Origin: Candidatus Hermodarchaeota archaeon
Lineage (GTDB): Archaea > Asgardarchaeota > Hermodarchaeia > Hermodarchaeales > Hermodarchaeaceae
Reading direction: 5' to 3'
Assembly (NCBI GenBank): GCA_016839805.1
Contig: JAEOTO010000033.1
Span: 1-64,000 of the forward strand
DNA length: 64,000 nucleotides
Made by a program: the position numbers and the translations under genes. A model generated the notes under the pieces. That model did not search any database. It saw only the letters and a list, made by a program, of their open reading frames with translations, and was not told the DNA's origin. The stretch's first letter is position 1, and each line of letters opens with the position of its first letter. This document shows positions 3,448 to 24,745 of this stretch, in pieces.

Positions 3448-3547
3448 AAGGAAGTTTGGAATATCAATTGCACTTCACACGTCTAGTATTTGGGGAGCCG
3501 ACAAATATGGTATACAATAGATTATGGATACTTTGGAGGGATGGATT

Positions 3548-6500
3548 ATGGTTGAAAGGAAGACACAAGCCACAATCCTAATGATAGTATTAGTGTTAAT
3601 TTATCCGATTTTCTCACCGTTATTCCTTCAAATTCCTTATTCACGTGGACCGTTAATCCCGTCACCCCAATCCACTCCAAGTATTGCAGCAAATTCCGAC
3701 AGAAAGGTTGAGTCACACAATGTGAGGAAGTATCCTGGTGGGAGTACATGGTTGAATTTCACAGACGATGTAACACGAGGAAAGCCTCCTGACATATTTG
3801 TGAAATCATCTGATCATCAGCGAATCGTTATTGGAGCAAAATTCTTTGGAATGTGGAATTGGACCGAGTATCACAATCTATCGCCCACTAAGACAATCAG
3901 ATTTGACACTTTTGAAATGCCCTTAACTGGACATAGAACGGAAATTGGTGACCCTGAACTTCCAATGGTGACTCGATTCATCGAAGTCCCCAGAGACGTC
4001 GATGTCACTGTTGAGCTTCTGTATAATACGTCTGTAATGCTGCAAAGAAATAATTTTGTATATCCCTATCAGGGGTTTGAAATTCCAATAAATTGGAGTG
4101 GTGCTCCCCCCACCTACGTGAATTTGAGCATTGTCTACAATCCCTTCCATCTTTATTTTTACCCAACTAATCGAGTTCAACTTTCTGGGGGAAATTCTGT
4201 AGATCCGATTATCATTCGTGGACATCGCGTAGTGGCCTTGAATATTTTCCCCGTTACATTTTCAGCCTTCACTAATGATTCTCTCGTATATCCGAATATG
4301 GAAATTGCCCTTAAGTATGATCGTCAAGCCACAATCCAAAGCCCTCCTGCTAATCTGGTCTCACCGATTTTTGATGAACTATTGAAAGCCATAATTTTGA
4401 ATTATGCGTCGTTAGCACAACCATATCCAGATTCTAACCAACCTCGAATGAAATCACAATCCATAGGGGCGGCAGCTGATTACCTCATCATTACTACTGA
4501 TGCCTTCAGAGCAGCGGTAGAACCACTTGCTGCCTGGAAACAGCGAAAAGGTCTCTTAACAAAAATTGTTACCGTTCAAGAAATCACGCAGGAAACTTCG
4601 AGTGATGCTATTCGGACAGCAATTTCTGGTTACATCGAAAATTCTTATTATAACTGGCAGTTAACTCCTACCTATATTCTCTTCGTTGGTGATGTCACAG
4701 ATATCCCAACCCATTATGCATTCCCCTATAATGTCTTACATGGGGAAAATATTAGTTCAGACCTGCCATATTTCACCCTTACTTATGGAAGTTACATTCC
4801 TAACTTCTTCTATGGCCGTCTATCCGTAGATACCGAAGAAAACGTCACCTCAATGGTGAATAAAATCCTAAACTATACGATAGAGCCAACTTCGAATCCA
4901 GATTTCTACAGTAGTATTGCGTCTTGCGCGTGTCTAAACTTCCTTGAACCCCAACTCTTCGCAACTGCAAATTTCGCTGCGGATTTTCTTAGAGGTCAGG
5001 GATACTACGTACACGATGTTGAAGGTTTACTTCCTTATTGGGACTCTGTTCCTTACAGTTTGGAAGATGGTCGAATACTCGCGTATTATTTCGGTCATGG
5101 TAAATCAAAGAATTTCGAAAGAAACCCCCCATTTCATAGGGATGACAGTGATGGCTGGGGCGCCCCTTCTTTTACGGTTGAGGAGGATTTTAAGTTTCTA
5201 AACATTCCTGATCGCATGTATCCACTAGTTCTGAGTATGGCCTGTAATACTGGCTGGTTTGATGGAGAAACAGATCAGGACAATCTGCGTGATCAAGGTC
5301 ATTCTGGATTCTTTGATGAGGATTATGACTGTTTTTGTGAAGAACTAACTCGTCTGGAAGAAAATGGTGCAATCGCGGTCATTGGAGCTACGCGACCCGC
5401 TCCCTTTCAAGCCACTCAATTGGTGTTTTTTGGGATGATTGGTGCGCTTTTTCCCGAATTTATTCCTCGTTATGTAATGGAAGGCCCACTGACTTTAGGT
5501 CAAACGCTTTATTTTGGTCAGATGTGGACTTTTAGTGGTTTTCATTTCTTTTCTGACATGCCGTTACATGGTTTTCTACAATTTCACCTCTTTGGAGATC
5601 CTGAGATGACCATATATACACGTCTACCAACCGAGTTGGCTGTGGAGTTCCCCGAAGCAATTGGATCACAAGGATTGCAATCCTTCGTAGTGAAGGTAAC
5701 GAATGAAAGTTCAGGAGCAGCAGTTCCAAAGGCAATGGTGTGTCTCCAAAACGCAGAGATTCATGAAGTCGCTTATACAAATACACATGGTCATGCTTTC
5801 TTTTTTGTTGAACCTGAGTTTGCTGGTGAATTGAATATCACGGTAACCTTGGATAACTGTAGGCCCTTTTTGGATGTCATTCGTGTGACAGCCTCTGGTG
5901 CTTATGGATTTTTGATTCCTGATCGGGGAGATGCAACCACCGAAATTACGTTTCAGGGCTATGAATTTCGAGCAAGCGAGCTAGTCACAGTAGAGGTTGA
6001 CGGGAAAAGTTTTGGGGAAATGAGAGCTGATGGGCAGAGGTTTGTTGAAATCGTAGCAAATCTGCCTGCTGGAGTAGGTTCAGGTCCCGTGAATTTTATT
6101 GCCTCCCAAGAAAATCCAGAACGGACGGCGGTTGTGTTATTTGGTTTTGATGAACAACCGGATCCTTTCATTTATTGTCAGTGGGATAGTACCACTTGGA
6201 ATATTGACTCAGAGGAAGGCGAGAGTAGTTTCCCGCGATGGGACAATCCCGATATCCAGGTAAGGAGTCTTACTGATTTCAATCCGGTTGGGACTTATAA
6301 TCTGAATGCACTTAACCCTTACGTGATTGATGCCACAATCCATAATGGTGCCCCAGCTGATGCTACTGGCACATGGATCATTTTTGAGTGGGCGGAATGG
6401 GGAATTGGCGCAATTCAATGGACAACTATTTCCGACCATTGGATTCCACTGATTCCCGGATACCAAAGCGTGAACATCACTTCCCTGCCCATTTTCCCGT

Positions 6501-7000
6501 TCCCAGGCAGTCTTCAGCGATGTGTGCGGGTACGAATTGAACATCAATATGATCTAAATCCCCATAACAACATTGGGACGGAGAACCTGGCTTTTATCTA
6601 CGTTGATCCCCACCTTTCTGGTGAGGTGAACATCGATTTCGCTCTTCTTTTCGTTGATGGCATTCAACCTGAATTGAACCTTATTGATAGTCAATCCGGT
6701 GATTTAGATCCGAATTGGCATGCCATTATACAAGCTCCATCTGCCTCGGAAATTACTGCTGAAGCATCTTTAGGGATGGCTAGTGTGACAGTGTCTTTGT
6801 CTTCTGATGTTCAATTATTCGAAGAACGAACGTATCTTATTATAGGTAGAATCGGAGACCAATTAGTTGGGGGCCTTGAGTTATACATCATCAAAGCAGT
6901 ACCTCCTCCCCCGCCTTGGTGGATCCTCCTCCTACTACTCGTCATAATTCTAATCATAATTTGTGTGATAATACTCATTCGGAGAAGACTCAGACCATAA
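3548..7000 (+). CDS. Membrane-anchored C25 (gingipain-like) cysteine peptidase
   Basis: N-terminal signal/TM, C25 propeptide (GDPELPMVTRFIEVP), DYLIIT...LAAWKQRKG, YILFVGD, YGRLSV, catalytic His (FGHG) and Cys (SMACNTGWFD), LFGDP, Ig-like domains, and a C-terminal PPPPP + TM + RRR anchor. Confidence 0.9.
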   Translation: MVERKTQATILMIVLVLIYPIFSPLFLQIPYSRGPLIPSPQSTPSIAANSDRKVESHNVRKYPGGSTWLNFTDDVTRGKPPDIFVKSSDHQRIVIGAKFFGMWNWTEYHNLSPTKTIRFDTFEMPLTGHRTEIGDPELPMVTRFIEVPRDVDVTVELLYNTSVMLQRNNFVYPYQGFEIPINWSGAPPTYVNLSIVYNPFHLYFYPTNRVQLSGGNSVDPIIIRGHRVVALNIFPVTFSAFTNDSLVYPNMEIALKYDRQATIQSPPANLVSPIFDELLKAIILNYASLAQPYPDSNQPRMKSQSIGAAADYLIITTDAFRAAVEPLAAWKQRKGLLTKIVTVQEITQETSSDAIRTAISGYIENSYYNWQLTPTYILFVGDVTDIPTHYAFPYNVLHGENISSDLPYFTLTYGSYIPNFFYGRLSVDTEENVTSMVNKILNYTIEPTSNPDFYSSIASCACLNFLEPQLFATANFAADFLRGQGYYVHDVEGLLPYWDSVPYSLEDGRILAYYFGHGKSKNFERNPPFHRDDSDGWGAPSFTVEEDFKFLNIPDRMYPLVLSMACNTGWFDGETDQDNLRDQGHSGFFDEDYDCFCEELTRLEENGAIAVIGATRPAPFQATQLVFFGMIGALFPEFIPRYVMEGPLTLGQTLYFGQMWTFSGFHFFSDMPLHGFLQFHLFGDPEMTIYTRLPTELAVEFPEAIGSQGLQSFVVKVTNESSGAAVPKAMVCLQNAEIHEVAYTNTHGHAFFFVEPEFAGELNITVTLDNCRPFLDVIRVTASGAYGFLIPDRGDATTEITFQGYEFRASELVTVEVDGKSFGEMRADGQRFVEIVANLPAGVGSGPVNFIASQENPERTAVVLFGFDEQPDPFIYCQWDSTTWNIDSEEGESSFPRWDNPDIQVRSLTDFNPVGTYNLNALNPYVIDATIHNGAPADATGTWIIFEWAEWGIGAIQWTTISDHWIPLIPGYQSVNITSLPIFPFPGSLQRCVRVRIEHQYDLNPHNNIGTENLAFIYVDPHLSGEVNIDFALLFVDGIQPELNLIDSQSGDLDPNWHAIIQAPSASEITAEASLGMASVTVSLSSDVQLFEERTYLIIGRIGDQLVGGLELYIIKAVPPPPPWWILLLLLVIILIIICVIILIRRRLRP

Positions 7001-8820: not shown

Positions 8821-9066
8821 TTTCTGATCCCTCCAATCGTGTTTTCAATCCGGGTCCCGTTCAGGTCCCGCATTGCACATGGATACTGTGTTTCTTATGA
8901 TATGAATCGATGGAAACCGAAGAGTGCAAAAATCTGGAGAACAAGCATCATGTTTGAGAAGGTTTGAACCGGCGGGTGAAAAATCAGTTGAAAACCCTTT
9001 ACGTTTTACTTAAAATGGAACCGAAAGATTATATTTTAAATCGTTTTATGGGTGGTCGGTGACCCC

Positions 9067-9588
9067 ATGAACAAAGTCGAAAAGGAGCCCGTTATGGGGA
9101 TTTTTGCGTTACCCGCGTTTCCCGTGGTACTAGTTACTGTCGAAGAGAACGTGATGACTGCAGCCGCATTTCATTTTTACTCTTTTGACCCGCCACATGT
9201 CATGGTGGGCATTCGTCCTCAAACCCTCACATATCAACTGATATTGAAACAACAAGAGTTTGGTATAAATATACCCACAACTAAACAGCTTGATATTGTC
9301 CGGACTTGTGGGGCAATTTCGGGTCGTGAGGAGAATAAATTTCAAAAAACCGGTTTAACCCCTAAGAAAGGAAAGGTCATTGATAGTGTGATGGTAGAAG
9401 AATGTCCCGTCAGCTTAGAATGCCGTGTGGTCCATGAAGTTCAGTTTGAGGGAAGTCATCGCTGGTTCATAGGTGAAGTAGTAGCTGTACAGGTTGATGA
9501 ACATTATTCACGGGATCAAGCTCTGATGTTTTGGATACGTCAATATCGAGAAGTCGGTAAAGTGCTGCTTGAAGTGGAAAGGAGATAA
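9067..9588 (+). CDS. Flavin reductase-like FMN-binding protein
   Basis: PVVLVT...ENVMT, EFGINIP, CGAISGREENKF, EECPVSLECRV, GSHRWFIGEV. Confidence 0.9.
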   Translation: MNKVEKEPVMGIFALPAFPVVLVTVEENVMTAAAFHFYSFDPPHVMVGIRPQTLTYQLILKQQEFGINIPTTKQLDIVRTCGAISGREENKFQKTGLTPKKGKVIDSVMVEECPVSLECRVVHEVQFEGSHRWFIGEVVAVQVDEHYSRDQALMFWIRQYREVGKVLLEVERR

Positions 9589-9602
9589 TGACTTTGATAC
9601 CA

Positions 9603-10334
9603 TTACTTTATTCTTAACAACTGGTCAATTTGAGGGAGAAGAACCCCCGCTTTCCCTTGTAGGTGCACATTTGCTATGGGAGTTAACGATGTTGTCTCAA
9701 CATTGACTTCGATGACATGCCCACCTTTCTGTTTCACGAGTAGTGGAAAGGATGCACTGGGTTGAACCAGGGCAGAAGTTCCAATTACTATGATGGCATC
9801 AGCGAGTTCAATTTCTTTAAGGACCTGACCCATTACCTGCTGGGGAAGGCTTTCACCAAACCAGACCACGTCAGGTCGGAGTTGTGCTCCACATTCCGGA
9901 CAGGGTGGGATACCTGTGGCAGGGCTAGTTAACTGGCTTTTATACGCACATTCAGTGCATTTGATCATCCAGATATTTCCATGTACCTCTAAAATTTTAG
10001 TTGAACCAGCGGTACGATGAAGGCCATCAACGTTTTGGGTAATTAGTGTCTTGAGGAATCCTTGTTCTTCCCATTTTGCCAGAGTAAGATGAGCTGGATT
10101 AGGTTGACATTTTGAAATAAGGTTTTGCCGCCAAGAGTACCATTCCCAGACAAGTGTTGGATTTTTGTTAAACGCCTGAGGTGTGGCTAGATCCATGGCG
10201 TTATATTGTCGCCACATTCCGTCTTTTCCGCGAAAAGTGGGAACATTGGACTCCTTGGAGATCCCTGCACCGGTTAATGTAATAAGATGGTTAGCTTTCC
10301 GTAGAATTTCAACACTTTGAGATAAGCGGTTCAT
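9603..10334 (-). CDS. cobB: NAD-dependent protein deacylase (sirtuin, class III)
   Basis: TGAGISKES..PTFRG, ITQNVDGLH, EVHG, CxxC/CxxC Zn site, RPDVVWFGE, GTSALV; YxxR motif (WYSWR). Confidence 0.93.
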   Translation of the reverse strand: MNRLSQSVEILRKANHLITLTGAGISKESNVPTFRGKDGMWRQYNAMDLATPQAFNKNPTLVWEWYSWRQNLISKCQPNPAHLTLAKWEEQGFLKTLITQNVDGLHRTAGSTKILEVHGNIWMIKCTECAYKSQLTSPATGIPPCPECGAQLRPDVVWFGESLPQQVMGQVLKEIELADAIIVIGTSALVQPSASFPLLVKQKGGHVIEVNVETTSLTPIANVHLQGKAGVLLPQIDQLLRIK

Positions 10335-10504
10335 GGTTACTGCTTCTCCTAGAATGTAAAAAACTGATTAGTGAATTTCGAATATTTAGGTTACTCTTTC
10401 ATTATCCATGAAAAGGGTACATTTTTTAATAGGAGAAATCACGGAAGGCAGAACTGAAGGTAATTAACCATAAATGAAGTGCTAATACAAACACTTGGTG
10501 ATAA

Positions 10505-11065
10505 ATGATGACAGAAACGTCGCGTCAGGGCTTGAGATTGCGAATCGTAATCGTTTTTCTACCTAATATTCTTTATTTTGTTATTTTGGCGATTGCCATT
10601 ATTCTTACTTGGATGTTTCCTCAGATTCCATGGCAGTTGCTACCCGGAGCAAGTCTGCTCTTTCCTTGGCCTTTACGGTTTATTGAGCTCTTTGGCGGCA
10701 TGATTCTTCTGATTCTGGCTGTCATGTTTATTGTCTGGGGTGTTATCTCACTTGGACTCCAACGTGCTCAAGGCAGTGAACTAGGTTCATCTAAACGTGG
10801 ATCATCCCTCATTACTACAGGTGCCTACGCGTATTGTCGCCACCCACAAACCCTGGGGTTCATCTTTGCTACTCCGGCTTTTGCGCTGATCTTTGACTTC
10901 GTCCCACTTCTTATTCTCGCTCTCCTCTATACTCCCCTCTTACTAGCCTTGCTGGGCTATGAAGAGGTCGAGTTATTACGTCGATTTGGCGATAGCTACG
11001 GAGTGTACCGTGAAACAGTTCCATTCATTATTCCTCGAAGAAAACGGATAGTTCCTCAGAAGTAG
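10505..11065 (+). CDS. Isoprenylcysteine carboxyl methyltransferase / PEMT-family membrane protein
   Basis: LITTGAYAYCRHP and EEVELLRRFGDSYGVYRETVP motifs; multiple TMs. Confidence 0.88.
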   Translation: MMTETSRQGLRLRIVIVFLPNILYFVILAIAIILTWMFPQIPWQLLPGASLLFPWPLRFIELFGGMILLILAVMFIVWGVISLGLQRAQGSELGSSKRGSSLITTGAYAYCRHPQTLGFIFATPAFALIFDFVPLLILALLYTPLLLALLGYEEVELLRRFGDSYGVYRETVPFIIPRRKRIVPQK

Positions 11066-12803: not shown

Positions 12804-13247
12804 TTACGCTTTCTTAAGGGCATCACGGATTTTCTTAGCCTGTTTTTCTAATTCCTTATTCGGAGGCGTTTGGCCATAATAAGGACCAGCTTCTATACGA
12901 ATACCGTCTCCTGAGAACCGGGGGATGACATGGATGTGAATATGGGGGATCTCTTGAAAAGCAGCTTTACCGTCGGCTAGCCAAACATTAATTCCCTCAC
13001 AACGTATCCCCGATTTGCGTAAAGCTGCCGCAATTTGTCCAGCCACTTGAAAGAGCCGACCCGCAAGTTGAGGATCAAGAGCTTCAAGGTTCGCAGCGTG
13101 AGACTTAGGTATCACCAAAGTATGACCAGGGTTGATAGGACGAATATCAAGAAAGGCAATGATTTCGTGGTTTTCAAAAACAACATGGGCAGGAAATTTT
13201 TTTGTGACGATGTTACAGAAGACACAATCGTGGGATTGTTTACTCAT
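12804..13247 (-). CDS. HIT-family hydrolase
   Basis: DCVFCNI, FLDIRPINPGHTLVIPK, HIHIHVIPR histidine triad. Confidence 0.95.
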   Translation of the reverse strand: MSKQSHDCVFCNIVTKKFPAHVVFENHEIIAFLDIRPINPGHTLVIPKSHAANLEALDPQLAGRLFQVAGQIAAALRKSGIRCEGINVWLADGKAAFQEIPHIHIHVIPRFSGDGIRIEAGPYYGQTPPNKELEKQAKKIRDALKKA

Positions 13248-15441: not shown

Positions 15442-15479
15442 CCTAAAAAAGAAGTAAAAACAAATTTTCTTAGACATAA

Positions 15480-16028
15480 TTACTCAGCAAAGTGGATTCG
15501 AAATTCACACGCTGGATCGCCTTGGATGCGACTTGCTGTTTGTGTAACTCGGGCAGTGTACGGCAGGCTGAGATTATCAATCCAGCTTTGTAGAAGGCCT
15601 TCAAGCATTCCTGAAACAACTTCACAGTATCTTAGGTCAAGAGTAGCCTCGAAGCTGTCCTGTTGGCAGATTGGACAGGATTCCGAGCGAAGTAGAAGAG
15701 TGCGATCATCCGTGAATTCAAGGGAGTCAGGTATTGTTCCAGTTGCTAATTCCCAGTTCTTTGACAAGAACTCGTCTACGCGGTTGAGGAAGAGGTCAGG
15801 AGAATTGGGAAAGTAGTTATCTGGGGGTTTTCCGTAACGACTGACGAGTCCCAAGAGGAGTTGTGTTGCCATGGATTTTCCTAATGCATGGAGGGCGCGT
15901 TCGATGGCTGTTGGATTACCTTGGTACTCCACTGAGAGCGATTCCACTAATCGGAGATAGAAAATGGGTAGCAATGGTCCAGAGAATAGGGGTAATTTAT
16001 CAGTGGGTGCAGGATTTTTGGAAGCCAT
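15480..16028 (-). CDS. V4R-domain protein (HNOX/V4R/TRAPP-Bet3-related fold)
   Basis: ALHALGKSMA helix, SCPIC, YCEVVSGMLEGLL, and C-terminal VTQTASRIQGDPACEFRI. Confidence 0.8.
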   Translation of the reverse strand: MASKNPAPTDKLPLFSGPLLPIFYLRLVESLSVEYQGNPTAIERALHALGKSMATQLLLGLVSRYGKPPDNYFPNSPDLFLNRVDEFLSKNWELATGTIPDSLEFTDDRTLLLRSESCPICQQDSFEATLDLRYCEVVSGMLEGLLQSWIDNLSLPYTARVTQTASRIQGDPACEFRIHFAE

Positions 16029-16070
16029 CTTGTGTGTACCTCGACTTTTGCTTATGAAAAGCTATGCCTT

Positions 16071-17306
16071 TTACTCTTCGTTTGACTTAGTCTCTTCAGT
16101 AGATTTAGATTTGGATACCGTTTCTTTTACAGCAGATTTGACTCGCGCAGCCCGTGAGGCTTTTGCGGGTGCTCGCTCACGGAGCTGACGTTCGGCTTCA
16201 GCAAGTGGTCCTGTAGGAATTGTGGTAGGTAAGGTGGGTGCCTGTCCAGTTAATTGGGCGATTTCAACCGATTTCTCTGCCCACAGAACTTGGGCTGGGT
16301 GGACGCCTGCTACACGCCAGTAAAAGAATCGATCCCAGAGCTTTTCTTCAATAGAAAGAACTCCTGCGGATAATGAAACAAGATTCAATCCTAAACGCTC
16401 AAATGCTGTAGCTACGACCTTACGGACTTCATCGCGGATTTCTGCTTCATCACGTAACGCACTCATGAATTCATGTTCTGAAAATTTGTCACGCATGACA
16501 TTATCAATGAGTGTTTTGAGGTATTCAATGAGTTCCTGCGAGTTCATGGGAATTCGTTGGTCATGTAGCGTCGTGATGAGTTTACGGGAATCTTCGACAA
16601 CAAAGGCAAAGAGTAGCCCATACGGCTCTTGCAGTCGTACAGATCGTTTAAAGTTAGTTTTGCCATCGGCGGTTTGCGTAGGAATGTCATATTCTTCACG
16701 GCGCCAAGACTTTCCAGTCCAGGTTAACCGAGCTAGATCTGATGTTTGGGTGACCCCAGTATTAGCATAGACATGGACCCGACCAGTATAAATGAAAACA
16801 ACATTTGTTTTAAAACCTTGACCTCGCCAACCGGTTTTAATTAACGGTGAAGGGAAGGTTTCAATACTGTATGGAGTTTCACTCGGTTCCCACACTTCAT
16901 ATACTTTGAATTCGCGGTTACCGTTGTTGAATTCCTCGCCATAGGCACAACATAACCAATCTGGAGGAACGTATATTTTGGCATCTTTTTCGATAATTTC
17001 AATTTGCTCCATATCACGTTCCAAGTCGGGGGGATGATAGATAAACTGGGGTAATCGTGCGTCTGATTCAGAAATTTCCGCGCCCGAAGGAAGTGTACGC
17101 GTTACTTTCTGACCCGTTGAGAATCCACCGAATGCAGCGATTCGTGTTAAGCGGCGGATTGATCGAATTGCTTGGGCGCCTCGATCTTTATGTGGAGCTT
17201 GAATCATTTGCGTCCAATAATTTTGTCCACCCAGATCACCGATCGGAATGCTTGGATGCGGTCCTAGTACTGGGTCCGGAGCCATTAAACAGATAGTTTT
17301 TGCCAC
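16071..17306 (-). CDS. Soluble SPFH/Band-7 domain protein (YdjI/Band_7_1-like)
   Basis: IYHPP...IEKDAKIYVP, VVFIY, YGLLFAFVVEDSRKLI, YLKTLIDNVMRD, EIRDEVRKVVATAFERLGLNLVSL; no TM; low-complexity basic tail. Confidence 0.7.
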   Translation of the reverse strand: MAKTICLMAPDPVLGPHPSIPIGDLGGQNYWTQMIQAPHKDRGAQAIRSIRRLTRIAAFGGFSTGQKVTRTLPSGAEISESDARLPQFIYHPPDLERDMEQIEIIEKDAKIYVPPDWLCCAYGEEFNNGNREFKVYEVWEPSETPYSIETFPSPLIKTGWRGQGFKTNVVFIYTGRVHVYANTGVTQTSDLARLTWTGKSWRREEYDIPTQTADGKTNFKRSVRLQEPYGLLFAFVVEDSRKLITTLHDQRIPMNSQELIEYLKTLIDNVMRDKFSEHEFMSALRDEAEIRDEVRKVVATAFERLGLNLVSLSAGVLSIEEKLWDRFFYWRVAGVHPAQVLWAEKSVEIAQLTGQAPTLPTTIPTGPLAEAERQLRERAPAKASRAARVKSAVKETVSKSKSTEETKSNEE

Positions 17307-17368
17307 ATGAAAGCCTCCTTCTTATAACAGCGATTGATTCCAACCTCAAATAACTTCTGGTATTGAGT

Positions 17369-18217
17369 TTAGAAACCGGTTATTTCATATCGGTCTCCTA
17401 GTTTTTCTTTTTTAGCTTCCTCCTCACTTCGCCATTCTTCGATGTACTGTTGAATTTTTTGTTGCAGAACTTCGTTGCTTGATTGAGCTATCCAGTCGAG
17501 GTTAATATGGACATGGTCACCTCGAAGTGCGAGTGTTCGAGCCACTGAGTCAAAGTAGCCGCCTTGTCCTTTCTTCCCTAGAAACCTGATGAAAGTATTG
17601 AAGGTACCTTGTTTCTTATTTTGATAGCTTTCAAGCATACTTTCGGGGACAATTGACATTTGTTTATTGATGAGTTTACCTACTAATTCATAGATGGCTG
17701 TTTCGACCGTAGCTTTATGCTTCACTCCACTTTCTAGAAGTGTATAGAAGTCAATAAGTCCTGTGAAACATTGTTTGAAGAAATCATGGCTTGTTCGCTG
17801 GAAATCAAGAACTTCACCAGTGGCTTTTATGTACACAACATCCTGCACAGCATCTGATCGCTCAACAACCAGATTCATGTGTTTTTTCCATTTCGTGAAA
17901 CTTTGAGGATGCTCTTGAAGTTCAGGGAGATATACTAGAGGGACATTGATGATGATCCTACTGAGTTTAAGGGCTTTTTCAAGATCACCACGATAAGGTT
18001 CCGTAGGGGGTAATCCTTCCATTTCAGCTACGAAGCATGCGCGATAGCTAGTTAAAATGAAATGTCCGTTTTGACCCCGAACCATGAGAGGTTGAGTACC
18101 AGAACGGACTCCTTTAGCAATCTTTCCCTTTGCCACAAGAAGGAGTGTTTCTTCTTCGCGTGGTAAAATACTTTTGACGAGTTTCAGTTTCTCTGTTGGT
18201 TCCAGTTCCCACGTCAT
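17369..18217 (-). CDS. PH-like (bPH/GRAM/GLUE-type) domain protein with helical C-terminus
   Basis: EETLLLVAKG...NGHFILTSYRACFV...INVPL pattern typical of PH-superfamily N-terminal strands. Confidence 0.6.
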   Translation of the reverse strand: MTWELEPTEKLKLVKSILPREEETLLLVAKGKIAKGVRSGTQPLMVRGQNGHFILTSYRACFVAEMEGLPPTEPYRGDLEKALKLSRIIINVPLVYLPELQEHPQSFTKWKKHMNLVVERSDAVQDVVYIKATGEVLDFQRTSHDFFKQCFTGLIDFYTLLESGVKHKATVETAIYELVGKLINKQMSIVPESMLESYQNKKQGTFNTFIRFLGKKGQGGYFDSVARTLALRGDHVHINLDWIAQSSNEVLQQKIQQYIEEWRSEEEAKKEKLGDRYEITGF

Positions 18218-18276
18218 GGCAGTTGACCAGCCTTTGTATGGTTGATTTTTCTACAATATGCTGATTGGATATTAGA

Positions 18277-20436
18277 CTATTGTCCAATGAATCGAGAAGC
18301 GAAAAGGTCAAATTGACTTAGAATTTCATTTGTAATACTGGGTTTTGTATTAGTTAATGCAGTTTTGAAATGAGTCATGGTTACTTGTGATGCTTCCAGA
18401 TTTTGGCGAATCGCGGCTAAGACCGCTTTGCGGCATACATTTTCGATATCCGCACCTGAATATCCACTAGTTTCTGAAGCGAGTTGATCTAAGTTCACAT
18501 CCTTAGCAATCGGCATGCGACGAGTATGAACCGTAAATATTGCGCGTCGAGCTTCTTCATCAGGTGGCGGGGTATAGATGAACATGTCAAATCGCCCTGG
18601 ACGAAGTAGAGCGGTATCAATGATATCAGGACGATTGGTTGCTGCTAAAACGACTACACCTTGAAGTTTTTCCATCCCATCTAATTCAACGAGTAATTGA
18701 TTGACAACCCGTTCACTAACACGGCTATCGAATCCAGAGCCCCGACGAGGAGCAAGATTATCCAATTCATCGATAAAAAGTACAGCAGGAGCTGCTTGTC
18801 GAGCGCGTCGAAAGATTTCAGCGATAATCTTCTCGGATTCACCCACCCATTTGCTCATGACTTCTGCGCCGCGTATAGAAATGAAATTCGCTTGACTTTC
18901 TGTAGCTACTGCTTTGGCAAGAAGGGTTTTCCCGGTTCCCGGAGGTCCAAATAAGAGTACACCTTTTGGTGGATTGACATTGAACCGCGAGAAAATATCA
19001 GGTCGGCTTATGGGCAGCTCCACGGCCTCTCGAATCGCTTGTTTTGCGGTTTCCATTCCACCAACATCATCCCAGTGGACCATTGGAATTTCAATAGCGA
19101 TTTCACGGAGTGCCGAAGGTTCGACGACTTGACGTGCTGTTCTAAAATCTTCAGAGGTTACCACAATTTGATTCATGACTTCAGGAGATACTTGCATTTG
19201 TTGTTCTTCGATTCGTGGGAGTACGCGACGTAAGGCCCCAAGAGCCGCTTCTTTTACGAGGAAAGCTAAATCAGAGCCAACAAATCCATGTGTTCCTTGA
19301 GCAAGTTGCTGTAAATCTACTGATGAATCCATGGGTACCCCACGAGTGTGCACTTGTAATATTTCTAGCCGTCCGCGAGTATCTGGAACGCGAATGTGAA
19401 TCTCACGATCAAAACGTCCAGGTCGGCGAAGAGCGGGATCGAGGGCTTCAAGTCGATTGGTCGCAGCAAGAATATAGACCTGATCGCGATCTTTGAGTCC
19501 GTCCATTAATGTAAGCAGTTGAGCGACAATTCGACTCTCCATTCCACCAGATTCACGGCGTGATGCGATAGCATCAATCTCATCGATGAATATAATTGCA
19601 GGTTTGTTTTTTTCTGCTTCATCGAAGACTTCGCGCAGGAATTTTTCGGATTCGCCATAATATTGGCTTACAATTTCGGGACCGTTGATTACTCGGAAGT
19701 AGGCTTCGCTTTCTGTAGCCACAGTTTTGGCGAGAAGGGTTTTTCCGCAGCCGGGTGGTCCATGTAGAAGAATTCCTTTAGGTGGTTCGATTTTAAGCCT
19801 GGTAAAGAGTTCAGGATGGCGTATCGGGAGTTCTACGATTTCGCGAATTCGATGAATCGCATCATCTAATCCACCGACATCGTCATATGTCACTGTAGCT
19901 ACTGCTTGTATTTCCTCGGGCGCTTCTTTCAGCAATTGAATTTCTGTATTCGCCGTTATGGTGACCGTTCCCGCAGGAACGGTTTTTGCTACATAGAATT
20001 TGGCTTCACCTAATGCAAAAGCTGCTTTTCCTACGGCAATAACTATATCCTTTTTGATAGGTTTGTTGAGTAGGTTGGTTTTCAAGAGCGATGCTGCCAA
20101 TTCTTGGCGATAATGAATCTCCTCACCCTTCAGCGGAGTTAATACAATGCTTCTAGCGGGTTGTGTTTCAGTTCCATGGAGAGTCACCAAATCTCCGATG
20201 CGCACACCAGCGTTAAGCCTGGTGAGACCATCCATTTTGATTACTGAACGATTGTGAAGTTTTTGGTCTCTGTAAGCCATGGCGCATATGCTTTTCTTTC
20301 CTACTATCTCAACTACAGAGCCATCTGGTAGCTGAAGTTGGTCTAAGAAAATAGGGTCAAGACGAACTGTGAAGCGTCCCACATCGACTGCACTGGCTTC
20401 AACAACCCGTAACGATGTCACAGACACTCTGGCCAC
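18277..20436 (-). CDS. cdc48: CDC48/p97/VAT-family AAA+ ATPase
   Basis: N-domain (LRVVEA..VDVGR, RLNAGVRIGD), D1 GPPGCGKT/FIDEID/ALRRPGRFDRE, D2 GPPGTGKT/FIDELD/LLRPGRFD. Confidence 0.96.
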   Translation of the reverse strand: MARVSVTSLRVVEASAVDVGRFTVRLDPIFLDQLQLPDGSVVEIVGKKSICAMAYRDQKLHNRSVIKMDGLTRLNAGVRIGDLVTLHGTETQPARSIVLTPLKGEEIHYRQELAASLLKTNLLNKPIKKDIVIAVGKAAFALGEAKFYVAKTVPAGTVTITANTEIQLLKEAPEEIQAVATVTYDDVGGLDDAIHRIREIVELPIRHPELFTRLKIEPPKGILLHGPPGCGKTLLAKTVATESEAYFRVINGPEIVSQYYGESEKFLREVFDEAEKNKPAIIFIDEIDAIASRRESGGMESRIVAQLLTLMDGLKDRDQVYILAATNRLEALDPALRRPGRFDREIHIRVPDTRGRLEILQVHTRGVPMDSSVDLQQLAQGTHGFVGSDLAFLVKEAALGALRRVLPRIEEQQMQVSPEVMNQIVVTSEDFRTARQVVEPSALREIAIEIPMVHWDDVGGMETAKQAIREAVELPISRPDIFSRFNVNPPKGVLLFGPPGTGKTLLAKAVATESQANFISIRGAEVMSKWVGESEKIIAEIFRRARQAAPAVLFIDELDNLAPRRGSGFDSRVSERVVNQLLVELDGMEKLQGVVVLAATNRPDIIDTALLRPGRFDMFIYTPPPDEEARRAIFTVHTRRMPIAKDVNLDQLASETSGYSGADIENVCRKAVLAAIRQNLEASQVTMTHFKTALTNTKPSITNEILSQFDLFASRFIGQ

Positions 20437-20525
20437 ACACCATTTTCACTACTTGGTATGAAAGGACTTAGTATACCCCTCGCGAGCAGCATATTTAACT
20501 CCGGCGCCTGATAGGAGATTACAAG

Positions 20526-21398
20526 TTGAGAGTTATGTCTACCCCAAAGCCAATTGAGGTTCTTTTTGATACAGGTCATAACGATGAAGTAGCTCCAGAC
20601 GAACCAGAACTTTCCCTGTTAGGAGAACTGCTCAAAAAAAATGCAATTAATTTTAACTTTACTAAGAACCCCCTTACCCCCGATTTATTTGAGAATTGTC
20701 ACGTTTTGGTGCTTGGGAATCCTCTTGACGCAGCATTTACTTCAGATGAAATTTCAGCCATCGTTTCTTTTGTTGAATCGGGAGGAGGACTGTTATTGAT
20801 TAGTGGAGCGACGATATTTGGAAAAGGCGGTGATTCGGCTCGTAGCACTAATCTTAACACAATAACAAAGGAATTCGACTTTGAATTTTCAGATAAGGCA
20901 ATCGCCATTTCGGAGGAACAAATCACAGCCATACCAAGTGCGCAACATCCTGTCGTTAAAGGTATTCGTCAACTTGAGTTTACCACTGGAACAAGTATCA
21001 AACCAGGTGATACTAGCACTCATCTTTTTCGGGCAACAAATATTCCAGGTAGCCCGACAATAGTAATTGCTACAGAGAGTGGAAAGGGACGAATATTAGC
21101 AATCGGTGGTGCTACACCTTTCTTTAATGATCATATTCAGGCTAGCGATCATGACTCATTTATAATTCAAGCTCTTTATTGGCTAGCTGGAGTTTCACCC
21201 ATTCCTTCAGTTACACGGTTAACGACTCCAAGTGAGGAAGTTGATGAAGTCCTAGCCCAGGAGGTAATTGATGACCTTCGGCAACAGCTTGAGCGCTTAG
21301 AACGAGAACTCAATGAGCTTAGAAATACAATCAATACTAGTTTGAAAGAAATGGAAAAAGTCATCCGAGAATTCCAACAAGATGAAGAGTCGACCTAG
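20526..21398 (+). CDS. Cytoplasmic GIFT (GldG/IFT52)-domain protein with C-terminal coiled coil
   Basis: VLFDTGHN, VLVLGNP...FTSDEISAIVSFVESGGGLLL, GKGGD...TNLNTITKEF, GKGRILAIG...WL; heptad tail; no signal peptide. Confidence 0.75.
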   Translation: MRVMSTPKPIEVLFDTGHNDEVAPDEPELSLLGELLKKNAINFNFTKNPLTPDLFENCHVLVLGNPLDAAFTSDEISAIVSFVESGGGLLLISGATIFGKGGDSARSTNLNTITKEFDFEFSDKAIAISEEQITAIPSAQHPVVKGIRQLEFTTGTSIKPGDTSTHLFRATNIPGSPTIVIATESGKGRILAIGGATPFFNDHIQASDHDSFIIQALYWLAGVSPIPSVTRLTTPSEEVDEVLAQEVIDDLRQQLERLERELNELRNTINTSLKEMEKVIREFQQDEEST

Positions 21399-21416
21399 TC
21401 GATATTTTCGAAGTTA

Positions 21417-22082
21417 CTATTTGGATGTATAAACAACTAGTTTTTCGATAGCTATTCGCCGCTCTAATTGGATTGCCCCAAGATTTTGTAAAGCCTGAAA
21501 ATCTACAATAATTTGAAAAAGCGGTCGATTCAGTATGGCGGCTAGTTCTTCTATTGATCGATCATCATTAACAGCTTCTAGTAGTGGATGGAGTTTGGAA
21601 GGAACCTGGCTTTCGGTGACAGTATGAACACGAACTGGAACATACCGTTCAGTGACAGCAAATGGTCGAAAAAGATAATCAATTAACGGCTGAAATTCCC
21701 GGAATGGACTTAAATCACCTAACCAATCTTGTAAGAGTTCTCCTTTTTGAAGTTCAATTCTTTTAATAAGCATACGCATTCGCGTTCGAATGGCAGCGAG
21801 GTCATGGGTTGAAAATGCAGCAACGTAGATATTTTGCCCATATTCAATGAGAATCTTCACATCTTCTCGATCGATGACCCGTAACCGTCCATCTTCCCGC
21901 TCTAATGTTCGTAGTTGTTGACCTTCCTCTGAGATGCGCCCAACAAGATCAGATAAAAACATACTCACAGCTGATAGGAAACCGGTAACGAGATCAGGTT
22001 CCATATTTTCAATCTGGAAGTCTTTTTGCAATAAAGTCCGTCCATCCCGATAGACAACATACAGACTATACAGTTGGGCCAT
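21417..22082 (-). CDS. Longin-domain + winged-helix protein (NPRL2-like architecture)
   Basis: LYVVYRDGRTLL...DLVTGFLSAVSMF longin motif; C-terminal YVPV...LLEAVNDDRSIEELA...LQNLGAI wHTH. Confidence 0.75.
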   Translation of the reverse strand: MAQLYSLYVVYRDGRTLLQKDFQIENMEPDLVTGFLSAVSMFLSDLVGRISEEGQQLRTLEREDGRLRVIDREDVKILIEYGQNIYVAAFSTHDLAAIRTRMRMLIKRIELQKGELLQDWLGDLSPFREFQPLIDYLFRPFAVTERYVPVRVHTVTESQVPSKLHPLLEAVNDDRSIEELAAILNRPLFQIIVDFQALQNLGAIQLERRIAIEKLVVYTSK

Positions 22083-22168
22083 ATCAAAGCACCAAGGTCT
22101 AATTCTCATTGATAGGTATGAAAAGAGATAAGCTTTACTAGAAAATAGTTAACGCAATAATAGCGCTA

Positions 22169-24745
22169 CTATGTTCGGGCTTGTGCGATTCGGTGGATTT
22201 CTCTGATGATTTCAGTGGGAGTTGTGAGTTCGTCTCCAATGTAAGTACGCCCTGAAGTGATATACGCCATATAAAATGCTAGAAATGGCACGAGTTTATC
22301 TTCTTTAATTCCAACCTCAATATAGTTGGCTTTATCAAGTTCATGGGCTCTTTTGTGAGCCCAATCTAAAATGACGTTATGATGGCGTTTGCCCTTAATT
22401 TTGAAGAACTCATGATGCAAATTAATTGTTATTAGCGGAATACGGTCACCTGCTAGGAGGAAACATTGGTGAAGCACGTCTGCGATGGCTTCCGGTAATC
22501 CCAAGTCAGGTGTGTCATTGCTGCTTAATTTGATATTCGGTAGGAAATCACTAAAGACGACGATCAGGGGAAGAGTACCAGGATTACGTCGTCGTTCGCG
22601 TTTAATGGTTTCACGAGCTCGTTTTAACCCGGCAGCAAGTGGGGTGTAACCAGAAAGTCGAAGGGTCATCAGTTTGGCCACTAAACGGGTCCAATTTGTG
22701 GTGGGAGTTTGCACTTCTGCAGCCCCCCAATCTTTCAATGCTATAAGTCCAACCCGATCTTTTGTACCCTCGAGACAGTTCTTAAAGGCAATCAGGGAGA
22801 GTTGGAGTTTTTCGAAATTTTTTACCATAGACACGCTTAGATCGACAACGAAGATAATCGTGAGTGGCGTTCGACTACGAAAACGTTTTTCCCGAATATC
22901 ACTTGCTCGAATCTTGACTCGGGGGGTTCGATTCGCTGCAGGATCTTGAAGAAGAGAAGCGGCCGTAATGGTTGCGGGAATATGAATATTCCGTGGCTTA
23001 CCTGAAGGTAGTCTTGAACCTAATAGGACCCCTCCCTGAGCGGTTCTAGAATGTGCAGATCCAGCACGTCGCCCCACTTGTTGAATAGACCATTTCGGGG
23101 CTCGTTGTCGTCCGAAATAACGGGGTTCTAGTAAATCTTCAAGATGAAAGAGAGGTCTACCTTCCTCAAGTCGGATGAGTGAGGAGGCGGAAAAGGGTTT
23201 AGGGGACCTAGGTTGTTGTTGAATCGAGATTTTTGCAGATGATGGGGTTGACGTGCCAATCGTTGGGGGGCTCGTAGATTCACCTCTATGTCTTGCACGA
23301 TGATATTTTCCTCCCGGATCTGGTGGTCTATCTCCAGAGGCGAGAGAGGGCATCACGGAGTACGCACGTCTATAGCGCCGCATTATCCGTTCTAATAAGA
23401 GTACTAATCCTGCAGCAATAATGCCTCCAATTACGAAATTTACGGGAAAGAGCGGGATTAGTAAACCAATTGCTAAGGCGATGACGATGTAGAAACATAC
23501 AAATCCTAAATACGAGCATCGCCCTGGCGGACCTTTGCTAGGTGGGGTTCCAAAAAAACGCTGATCATCCTGATTGCTATCTAGCGGATAGTATTGACCA
23601 AATTTCCGAGTAAGCTTCTGGTGCTTCTCTTTATCAGAAGGGGATTTATCCTTCGATTGAGGGTCTTTCGTCTTAACTTTCTTTTTTGCTTCCTTCAAGG
23701 TGGAACTAATATCTGCACGAGTGGGAGGTTCTAAGATTCCACGTTGTCGGGTTCGATGGCTAAGGGCTAGTGATGCAACTGTTTCAATGTCTTCAACTGT
23801 CACTTTCGTTCGACCATCAAAGGCTGCAAACGCCATGGCTGTCTTTGCGATTACTATATCTGGACGTGCACCATCTACTTGTAAACGTGAGGTAAGATTT
23901 GCGATAAGTTGCATCACGGCCTCAGGAATTACCACGTCTTTCATGCGTTCACGCGCTGCAGCGATTTCTTTGCTTAATTTCTCTTCTTTAGGGGCCCATT
24001 TTGCATTCATTGTTTTCGGATCACGTTCAAATGCAATATTCAACCGAATAATTTCGACACGTTCTTCTTCCGTAAAGGGGCGATGGATGGCAACATGGAG
24101 GGGAAATCGGTCTAGTAATTGGGGACGAAGTTCGCCTTCTTCTGGATTCATTGAACCAATGAAAATGAAACGGGCAGGATGACTTACTGAAATGCCTTCC
24201 CTTTCAACGACATTAACACCTGTGGCCGCAGCATCAAGAAGTGAATCAACGATGTGATCAGGAAGCAAATTCACTTCATCAACGTAAAGCAGATTCTGAT
24301 TCGCATCAGCTAAAATCCCTGGTTTTAATGCAGCGACGCCATCCCGAATAGCTCGTTCGACATCTAAACTACCAACGACCCGGTCCTCAGTAGCACTTAA
24401 GGGGAGATTTATCACGCGCATTTTACGTGTTTCAGTTTCGAGTTTCTCCTTCGCTTGAAGCTTCGTCAAGCAGGCCTCACAAAGGACAGAGTTATCATCA
24501 GTAGAGCAGCGGAATTGACAACCTTTTACGACTGGTATTTCAGGTAATAGAACTGCCAAGGAGCGAACAATCGTTGTTTTTCCTGTGCCTTTAGGTCCAG
24601 TGATGAGGAGACCTCCAATACGTGGATTGATGGCATTGAGTAGAAGAGCAAGTTTCAATTCATCATGATTGACAATAGCTGTGAAAGGAAGCGTTACCCG
24701 CGTTCCAGCCGTCTCATCTAGGACCAACGTGTGACCCTCAACCAC
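22169..24745 (-). CDS. ChlI/ChlD-like AAA+ ATPase - TM hairpin - vWA fusion
   Basis: [39 protein letters not shown]; two central TM helices; Pro/Ser-rich linker; MIDAS DLSVS, TPLAAGL, FSD. Confidence 0.88.

Follow-up and report, generated by a model that had tools for sequence, protein, structure and literature searches.

Does a run of genes around a CDC48-type ATPase in an Asgard archaeon encode one functional system, and which of the genes belong to it? The question is raised by positions 15480-24745 of contig JAEOTO010000033.1 from a Candidatus Hermodarchaeota archaeon, of which the first 64,000 nucleotides (the window) were analysed. An earlier note on this DNA had listed seven open reading frames (ORFs) here, encoding CDC48, PH-like, SPFH, V4R-like, GIFT and longin-winged-helix proteins and an AAA/transmembrane/vWA protein (found here to be ChlI/ChlD-like and called CHEL), and had proposed that all seven form one functional system, a candidate proto-eukaryotic membrane-trafficking or quality-control cluster. 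The coordinates and strands of the seven ORFs, and the gaps of 42, 62, 59 and 89 bp between neighbouring ones, were borne out. Comparison within the Hermodarchaeum family, above all between the genus of the window and its sister genus, showed that six of the genes (15480-22109, 6.6 kb, referred to here as the block) are present or absent as one unit. On the reading that we weigh below, this lineage-specific block, built around a third and fast-evolving CDC48 paralogue, would constitute a dedicated, proteasome-independent remodelling module with an SPFH scaffold and adaptor-like partners, a proposal that we regard as evenly poised between right and wrong.

The delimitation of the block follows from the sister genus, in which the backbone runs g532-HIT-AFOR / CHEL-Macro-ECF-ThiN (g532 being a 532-aa gene), with AFOR and a 62% identical CHEL orthologue directly beside each other, 66 bp apart, and the six block genes missing. 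Because the sister genus keeps this backbone without the six genes, these form a single presence/absence unit, and CHEL is a conserved backbone gene and not a member of the block. The claim of one seven-gene system thus stands for six genes as an evolutionary unit and falls for the seventh. Gene by gene, the PH gene was found in 14/14 genomes of the window's own genus, in 0/4 of the sister genus and in none elsewhere among the genomes searched. The long SPFH gene was likewise present in 14/14 and 0/4, with only remote matches to its C-terminal half elsewhere, and the V4R-like gene was present in 13/13 genomes of the genus, with no match at E <= 1e-5 in the four sister-genus genomes (one weak match) and none elsewhere among those searched. 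Neither a GIFT relative of the block type nor the third CDC48 was detected in the four sister-genus genomes; the sister genus has two CDC48 paralogues, both of another type than the block CDC48 and with no block genes beside them. Collinearity within the genus itself was rejected as functional evidence, the seven genes being collinear there and the flanking ThiN, ECF-S, Macro, DinB, AFOR, HIT and 532-aa genes equally so.

Scans of genomes and metagenomes returned close relatives only (67-96% identity). All six genes recur in unchanged order on the metagenomic contigs L075 and L076, whose distance from the window is about that of the sister genus (CHEL 58-60% against 62%, AFOR 67% against 68%). 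In L075 an ABC/FtsX gene replaces AFOR on one flank. The order of the block is identical in every related contig long enough to show it. The block-bearing range comprises three genus-level lineages with this fixed order, and the arrangement is more than an accident of one genome. In the CHEL gene tree the four lineages were unresolved, and forcing the block-bearing lineages into one clade cost 6.5 log-likelihood units (approximately unbiased test, p-AU 0.04); the history leans weakly towards an ancestral block that may have been lost in the sister genus.

Within the genome of the window the V4R-like, SPFH and PH genes are single, further copies exist of the GIFT (five), longin (four) and CDC48 (two) genes, and no second cluster of the block-gene families was found. 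The partner genes of CDC48 in the block are orphan or strongly diverged and, to judge from their sequences, all under purifying selection. Among the papers searched, none linked Hermodarchaeota with Cdc48, or Asgard archaea with GIFT/IFT52. The features of the locus are collected in the table.

Table. Genes and sequence elements of the CDC48 locus, with the basis on which each was assigned.
Feature	Position	Strand	Basis
TRAPPC3/V4R-like, 182 aa	15480-16028	-	phmmer to 7yh3/7yh2
SPFH, YdjI/Band_7_1 type, 411 aa	16071-17306	-	Band_7, tblastn, Atlas features
Orphan 'PH-like', 282 aa	17369-18217	-	PH label a lead only
CDC48/VAT third paralogue, 719 aa	18277-20436	-	TIGR01243
GIFT protein, 290 aa	20526-21398	+	IFT52_GIFT and DUF4350
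Longin and winged helix, 221 aa from probable start 22082	21417-22109	-	AF2 and Foldseek
ChlI/ChlD-like AAA+ / TM hairpin / vWA; backbone, outside block	22169-24745	-	TIGR02442
Conserved intergenic element 5' of SPFH gene	17307-17368	-	TATA-like TTATTTGA box, GAAGGAGG Shine-Dalgarno
T-rich stretch after V4R-like gene	15442-15479	-	T5 and T6 runs on sense strand

The central gene encodes a complete CDC48 protein, which scored 929 bits on TIGR01243 (cut-off 803). CDC48_N, CDC48_2 and two AAA domains with their lids were found, the N domain consisting of a double-psi barrel and a beta-clam, followed by D1 and D2. Aromatic pore loops (..SQYYGESE in D1, ..SKWVGESE in D2) and two intact Walker B motifs were read by eye, and both kinds of motif are VAT-like. 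It is one of three CDC48 paralogues in the genome, the others being referred to as C4 and C46. In a tree of 24 sequences the block copies grouped together (100/100) on a very long stem (0.97), as sister (95/91) to a canonical clade that holds C4, the sister-genus orthologues of C4 and copies from three other Asgard families. The C termini were compared with the HbYX pattern, taken as a C-terminal [LVIMGAPFYW][FY]x (PMC3493965). Paralogues C4 (..PYA) and C46 (..PFA) end in this pattern, and it is absent from the block CDC48 in six orthologues, whose tails differ from one another (..FIGQ, ..FLGQ, ..LLRK, ..LVSG, ..GEGS). CDC48 proteins of Methanosarcina mazei without HbYX gave no stimulation of the 20S proteasome (PMC3493965). 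The simplest reading of the sequence is that the block CDC48 would be active as an unfoldase without docking on the proteasome. A complex prediction of its N domain (residues 1-190) with the PH-like orphan scored 0.00, which, with the fold of the orphan uncertain, counts neither way. Separately, paralogue C46 (genome G000, contig C46, 32058-35525) was seen to carry an insertion of about 460 aa in D2 that resembles an intein, lying directly after GPEVL and beginning with Cys; its C terminus is intact and HbYX-like (..TTPFA).

Of the domain labels that the earlier note had given to the seven proteins, those of CDC48, SPFH, V4R-like, GIFT, longin-winged-helix and AAA/TM/vWA were upheld, and PH-like remains a weak lead. 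The SPFH protein lies just at the cut-off of Band_7 (PF01145; 23.7 against 23.6, residues 231-313 only), falls below that of Band_7_1 (PF13421; 15.3 against 24) and gave 0.92 with Atlas features. By tblastn its residues 131-357 matched 290-aa proteins of another Asgard family at E 1e-8 to 1e-12, and these relatives, which have a C-terminal zinc ribbon, reach 76-85 bits on Band_7_1. The block protein has an extra N-terminal region and a basic tail without the zinc ribbon, and its gene is the best conserved of the block (72-97% identity across the family). Stomatin, prohibitin and HflK/C use an N-terminal transmembrane (TM) segment or hairpin as membrane anchor. No such anchor was seen in the block SPFH protein, in which the Kyte-Doolittle mean stays at or below 1.6 in every 19-residue window. 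This absence fits the soluble YdjI-like subgroup, and the protein is, as predicted from sequence, a soluble SPFH protein of the YdjI type. As an aside, in two genomes of another Asgard family a zinc-ribbon Band_7_1 SPFH gene lies beside an Eco57I-like N6 methyltransferase gene and a gene of the metallo-beta-lactamase fold (L052, 7529-13058; L062, 7723-12000), a neighbourhood that may be of the defence type.

The product of the V4R-like gene matched the Thorarchaeota TRAPPC3 structures 7yh3/7yh2 in a phmmer search of the PDB (E 2e-4, residues 12-177 against 3-155), and its Pfam matches were below threshold (TRAPP E 0.0056, V4R E 0.14). Four cysteines (C118, C121, C135, C174) were read from the translation; in the solved Thorarchaeota homologue four cysteines bind zinc (PMC10933270). 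By its sequence the protein can be placed in the TRAPPC3/Bet3-V4R family.

The orphan is encoded between SPFH and CDC48. In a search of 1.84 billion representatives its own cluster was the sole true relative; a second match (P0009) was an ankyrin-repeat protein in which one short motif was matched nine times and was discarded as a repeat artefact. Across all block-bearing contigs the gene is 59-96% identical. Pfam gave no match, even across 13 orthologues, a PDB profile search gave none either, and an AlphaFold2 (AF2) model built from the 13 orthologues reached a predicted local distance difference test (pLDDT) value of 38. With Atlas features the best Pfam-bearing matches all belong to the PH clan (BBS5, Vps36-GLUE, GRAM and bPH_3, at <=0.88), and hhalign against 11 Asgard bPH_3 domains gave E 0.028 with a FILTSYRxxF motif in register. 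As a weak lead, the N-terminal part of the protein may be a PH/GRAM-like domain and its C-terminal half helical. Two segments were invariant in the 13 orthologues, glycine-rich FLGKKGQGGYF at residues 212-222 and LGDRYEITGF at 273-282, the extreme C terminus. The former may loosely resemble the SHP box of p97 cofactors, a likeness that we do not claim.

On the other side of CDC48 lies the divergently oriented GIFT gene. Its product exceeds the cut-offs of IFT52_GIFT (PF23355; 32.9 against 27.2, covering only positions 18-107 of 246 in the model) and DUF4350 (30.7 against 30.4), and is predicted to be cytoplasmic, with a coiled coil at its C-terminal end. No other block gene evolves as fast (40-87% identity within the family). 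In 5/6 loci examined from another Asgard family (f6: L082-L084, L095 and L096, each near 9000-11000), a HIT-family gene lies divergently beside the nearest GIFT relative, and in the sixth, L081, tblastn matched the HIT gene alone (10503-10916). The window has a HIT gene (12804-13247) 7 kb from its GIFT gene on the same backbone, which may be left over from an older GIFT-HIT linkage.

For the last block gene Pfam gave no match. An AF2 model from a 30-sequence alignment (pLDDT 76.7) has the topology bb-a-bbb-a-a followed by a winged helix, and Foldseek returned 29 PDB matches at E <= 1e-3, of which those listed were nearly all longin proteins and the top ones GATOR1 NPRL2/3, AP sigma/mu, zeta-COP, TRAPPC1, Sec22b and VAMP7. 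The fold search thus supports the longin call of the earlier note, and by its modelled fold the protein can be counted among the longins. Its N-terminal domain belongs to a large multi-copy Asgard expansion and occurs also in proteins of about 750 and 1350 aa. The listed ORF begins 27 nt early (22083-22109); orthologues start at M10, which is the ATG at 22082, and several of them have a TGA in the stretch upstream of that Met. Judged by the orthologues, the true start is probably 22082.

How the block may be transcribed was read from its intergenic sequences. The three gaps within the CDC48-PH-SPFH-V4R run contain no oligo-T runs, T5/T6 runs follow the last gene, and the T-rich stretch listed in the table is a likely end of the transcription unit. 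Within the genus, the sequence preceding CDC48 (GGAGTTAAATAT) is conserved. The element before the SPFH gene is kept in four loci of the genus and in the divergent L076, L075 retaining the GGAGG site alone, and there may be an internal promoter at this point. A further upstream motif, CYTTTCATAMS, with three occurrences in the window (before the V4R-like, CDC48 and longin genes), was rejected because the pattern had been derived from these very sites and the orthologous positions of six related loci lack it.

On the proposed reading, the genes for CDC48, the PH-like orphan, SPFH and the TRAPPC3-like protein would form one transcription unit, the SPFH gene possibly having an internal promoter of its own. 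The block CDC48 would be a dedicated unfoldase or segregase acting independently of the 20S proteasome, and the co-inherited partners would supply it with targets or location. SPFH proteins are paired with AAA+ ATPases in HflK/C-FtsH, prohibitin-m-AAA and erlin-p97. By analogy with these three, and with archaeal Vps4-like ATPases and their SPFH proteins, an oligomer of the block SPFH would act as scaffold, the PH-like orphan and the TRAPPC3-like protein, the latter possibly binding zinc or a ligand, as adaptors or sensors, and the GIFT and longin-winged-helix proteins as accessory or regulatory parts. Functional coupling of the block genes is plausible. We consider rather improbable the more specific version, a self-contained, proteasome-free CDC48 machine. 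In it, a cage or ring of SPFH, a PH-like adaptor for membranes or ligands, a zinc-binding TRAPPC3-like protein and a longin-winged-helix regulator would assemble with CDC48 or direct it.

Several observations weigh against the module. A single deletion or insertion moves neighbouring genes regardless of shared function, and the indel speaks for common descent, not for function. The GIFT, longin and CDC48 genes are multi-copy in the genome, and some adjacency between them is expected. Conservation of the neighbourhood across Asgard genomes, which the earlier note had named as a check, holds as a fixed order in the Hermodarchaeum family and ends there: neither the nearest SPFH relatives (12 loci/genomes) nor the nearest GIFT relatives (16 loci/genomes), both from many Asgard families, lie within about 10 kb of a CDC48 gene or any other gene of the block, 28 loci in all. 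The TATA-like box before the SPFH gene, itself conserved, permits separate transcription, and the GIFT and longin-winged-helix genes are on transcription units of their own. The PH-like fold is a lead only. A hydrophobicity scan found no TM segment in any of the six block proteins, all of which are predicted to be soluble. Finally, as regards interaction among the block proteins, lipid binding and expression, the proposal builds on gene order and sequence.

The claim of a membrane-trafficking machine is not supported: the six proteins have no TM segment, and nothing shows membrane association, trafficking or interaction. The label 'proto-eukaryotic' is doubtful as well, the block being found in a narrow, derived clade and its members being orphan or strongly diverged.

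The strongest alternative, which we think possible and would still bet against, is that the six genes are neighbours by descent only, functionally unrelated members of abundant Asgard families that were deleted as one segment in the sister genus or inserted as one. It would account for metabolic flanks as collinear as the block within the genus, for the further longin, GIFT and CDC48 copies in the genome, and for the finding that no partner family is linked to CDC48 in the other Asgard lineages examined, and it agrees with the published observation that Asgard trafficking-type genes are generally not operonic (PMC10933270). However, the PH, SPFH and V4R-like genes are single-copy and lineage-specific and occur solely beside this CDC48 paralogue. 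Four of the genes are co-directional, with gaps of 42-62 bp and no internal T-run terminators, and the order is kept in lineages as distant as the sister genus, one of them with a rearranged flank. CDC48 and its partners are moreover all strongly diverged, as would be expected under joint evolution.

Far less probable is the seven-gene version of the earlier note, taken here as a proto-eukaryotic trafficking machine or one resembling endoplasmic-reticulum-associated degradation (ERAD), in which CHEL would be the membrane anchor. In the hydrophobicity scan of the seven proteins TM-like windows were indeed found in CHEL alone, whose AAA+ and vWA parts are split by a hydrophobic TM hairpin at about residues 408-457, and its gene is co-directional with the longin gene, 59 bp upstream of it, and adjoins the block in every block-bearing contig. 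Nor need CHEL be a metabolic chelatase: it scores 556 bits on TIGR02442, below the cut-off of 779, and no PF02514 match to a CobN/ChlH partner was found in the 87%-complete genome, in which controls did match. By TIGR02442, TIGR02030/02031 and a CobN/ChlH partner it does not classify as a Mg/Co chelatase of the ChlI-ChlD type, and because no such partner was found in this genome it is probably not a classical chelatase. However, its sister-genus orthologue mentioned above occupies this locus with none of the six genes beside it, full-length relatives (840-900 aa) occur in other Asgard families without the block, its adjacency follows from the position of the block, and across Asgard archaea these families show no conserved linkage of a eukaryote-like kind.

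Least probable of all is a remnant of an integrated mobile element or virus with accessory genes, for which the clean presence or absence of orphan or strongly diverged genes, the long CDC48 branch and the Eco57I-like methyltransferases beside SPFH relatives elsewhere would speak, but against which stand the lack of an integrase at the block, of tRNAs or Rfam matches in the window and of convincing direct or inverted repeats at the block ends, a GC content uniform across the window and the same in the block as around it, the absence of SPFH and PH relatives from IMG/VR, PADLOC results with generic AAA matches only and no defence signature, and the fixation of the block at one locus in 14/14 genomes of the genus and two further lineages.

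The remainder of the window holds ordinary metabolism genes. At 3524-7000 it also encodes a 1158-aa protein with a peptidase C25 (gingipain-like) domain and its propeptide.

To our knowledge, archaeal CDC48 has no dedicated cofactors besides the 20S proteasome. If a self-contained machine did exist here, it would be an archaeal case of trafficking-type platform folds serving as cofactors of a p97-type ATPase, and one of the rare Asgard loci whose gene order reveals the partners of proteins of this kind. Longin, TRAPP-like, GIFT and SPFH genes are numerous in Asgard genomes, but their partners are almost never evident from gene order (PMC10933270). The block offers a concrete set of six proteins for reconstitution, among them the HbYX-less CDC48, the SPFH protein, the TRAPPC3-like protein and the orphan adaptor-like protein. 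Because it is confined to one small family, its reach is that of a lineage-specific innovation and not of an ancestor of eukaryotic trafficking or ERAD.

Among known systems, the Thorarchaeota TRAPPC3 (PDB 7yh2/7yh3; Tran et al. 2024, PMC10933270) shares with the V4R-like protein a full-length match and four cysteines. In contrast to it, the block protein has sub-threshold Pfam matches and no close relatives beyond the family, and neither a TRAPP-like partner set nor a small GTPase is encoded near its gene. The best whole-length Foldseek matches of the longin-winged-helix model are NPRL2/3, proteins with a longin and later domains (E ~2e-5). A GP motif before strand 2, adjoining the arginine finger, marks the longins of the GTPase-activating protein (GAP) type, the NPRL2/FLCN/SMCR8 class (PMC12290439); in the block protein this motif is absent, the loop reading RDGRT in all orthologues, with the G invariant and no P after it. 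It differs from the longin platform proteins (AP sigma/mu, zeta-COP, TRAPPC1, Sec22b, NPRL2/3) also in its C-terminal part, an AsnC/TrmB-like winged helix-turn-helix.

With the archaeal CDC48/VAT unfoldases of the proteasomal AAA network (Forouzan et al. 2012, PMC3493965) the block CDC48 has the full N-D1-D2 architecture in common, and it departs from them in lacking HbYX, in its long stem and in being a third paralogue confined to the family. In the Bacillus subtilis pspA-ydjGHI operon, as cited in PMC11188069, PspA is tethered to the membrane by the SPFH protein YdjI. This operon is alike in that an SPFH protein of the Band_7_1 subfamily is encoded together with a factor of membrane stress or remodelling in a short operon. 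CDC48 takes the place of that factor in the block, where no PspA/ESCRT-III homologue was recognised. From the SPFH-AAA+ pairings in general the block differs in that its ATPase is a two-ring CDC48 and not Vps4 or FtsH, in having no ESCRT-III/PspA, adaptin-appendage or protease gene, in an SPFH protein without TM segment and zinc ribbon, and in that the pairing occurs in one family. What it shares with them is a classical-clade AAA+ ATPase encoded beside an SPFH gene. The closest parallel is offered by the archaeal 'Meth_adaptin' loci, which encode a Vps4-like ATPase together with a coiled-coil SPFH protein bearing a zinc ribbon, a related case being that of Vps4-like ATPases whose N domain is of the VAT type (PMC11188069); as in these Vps4-SPFH loci, the SPFH protein of the block is of the YdjI/Band_7_1 kind.

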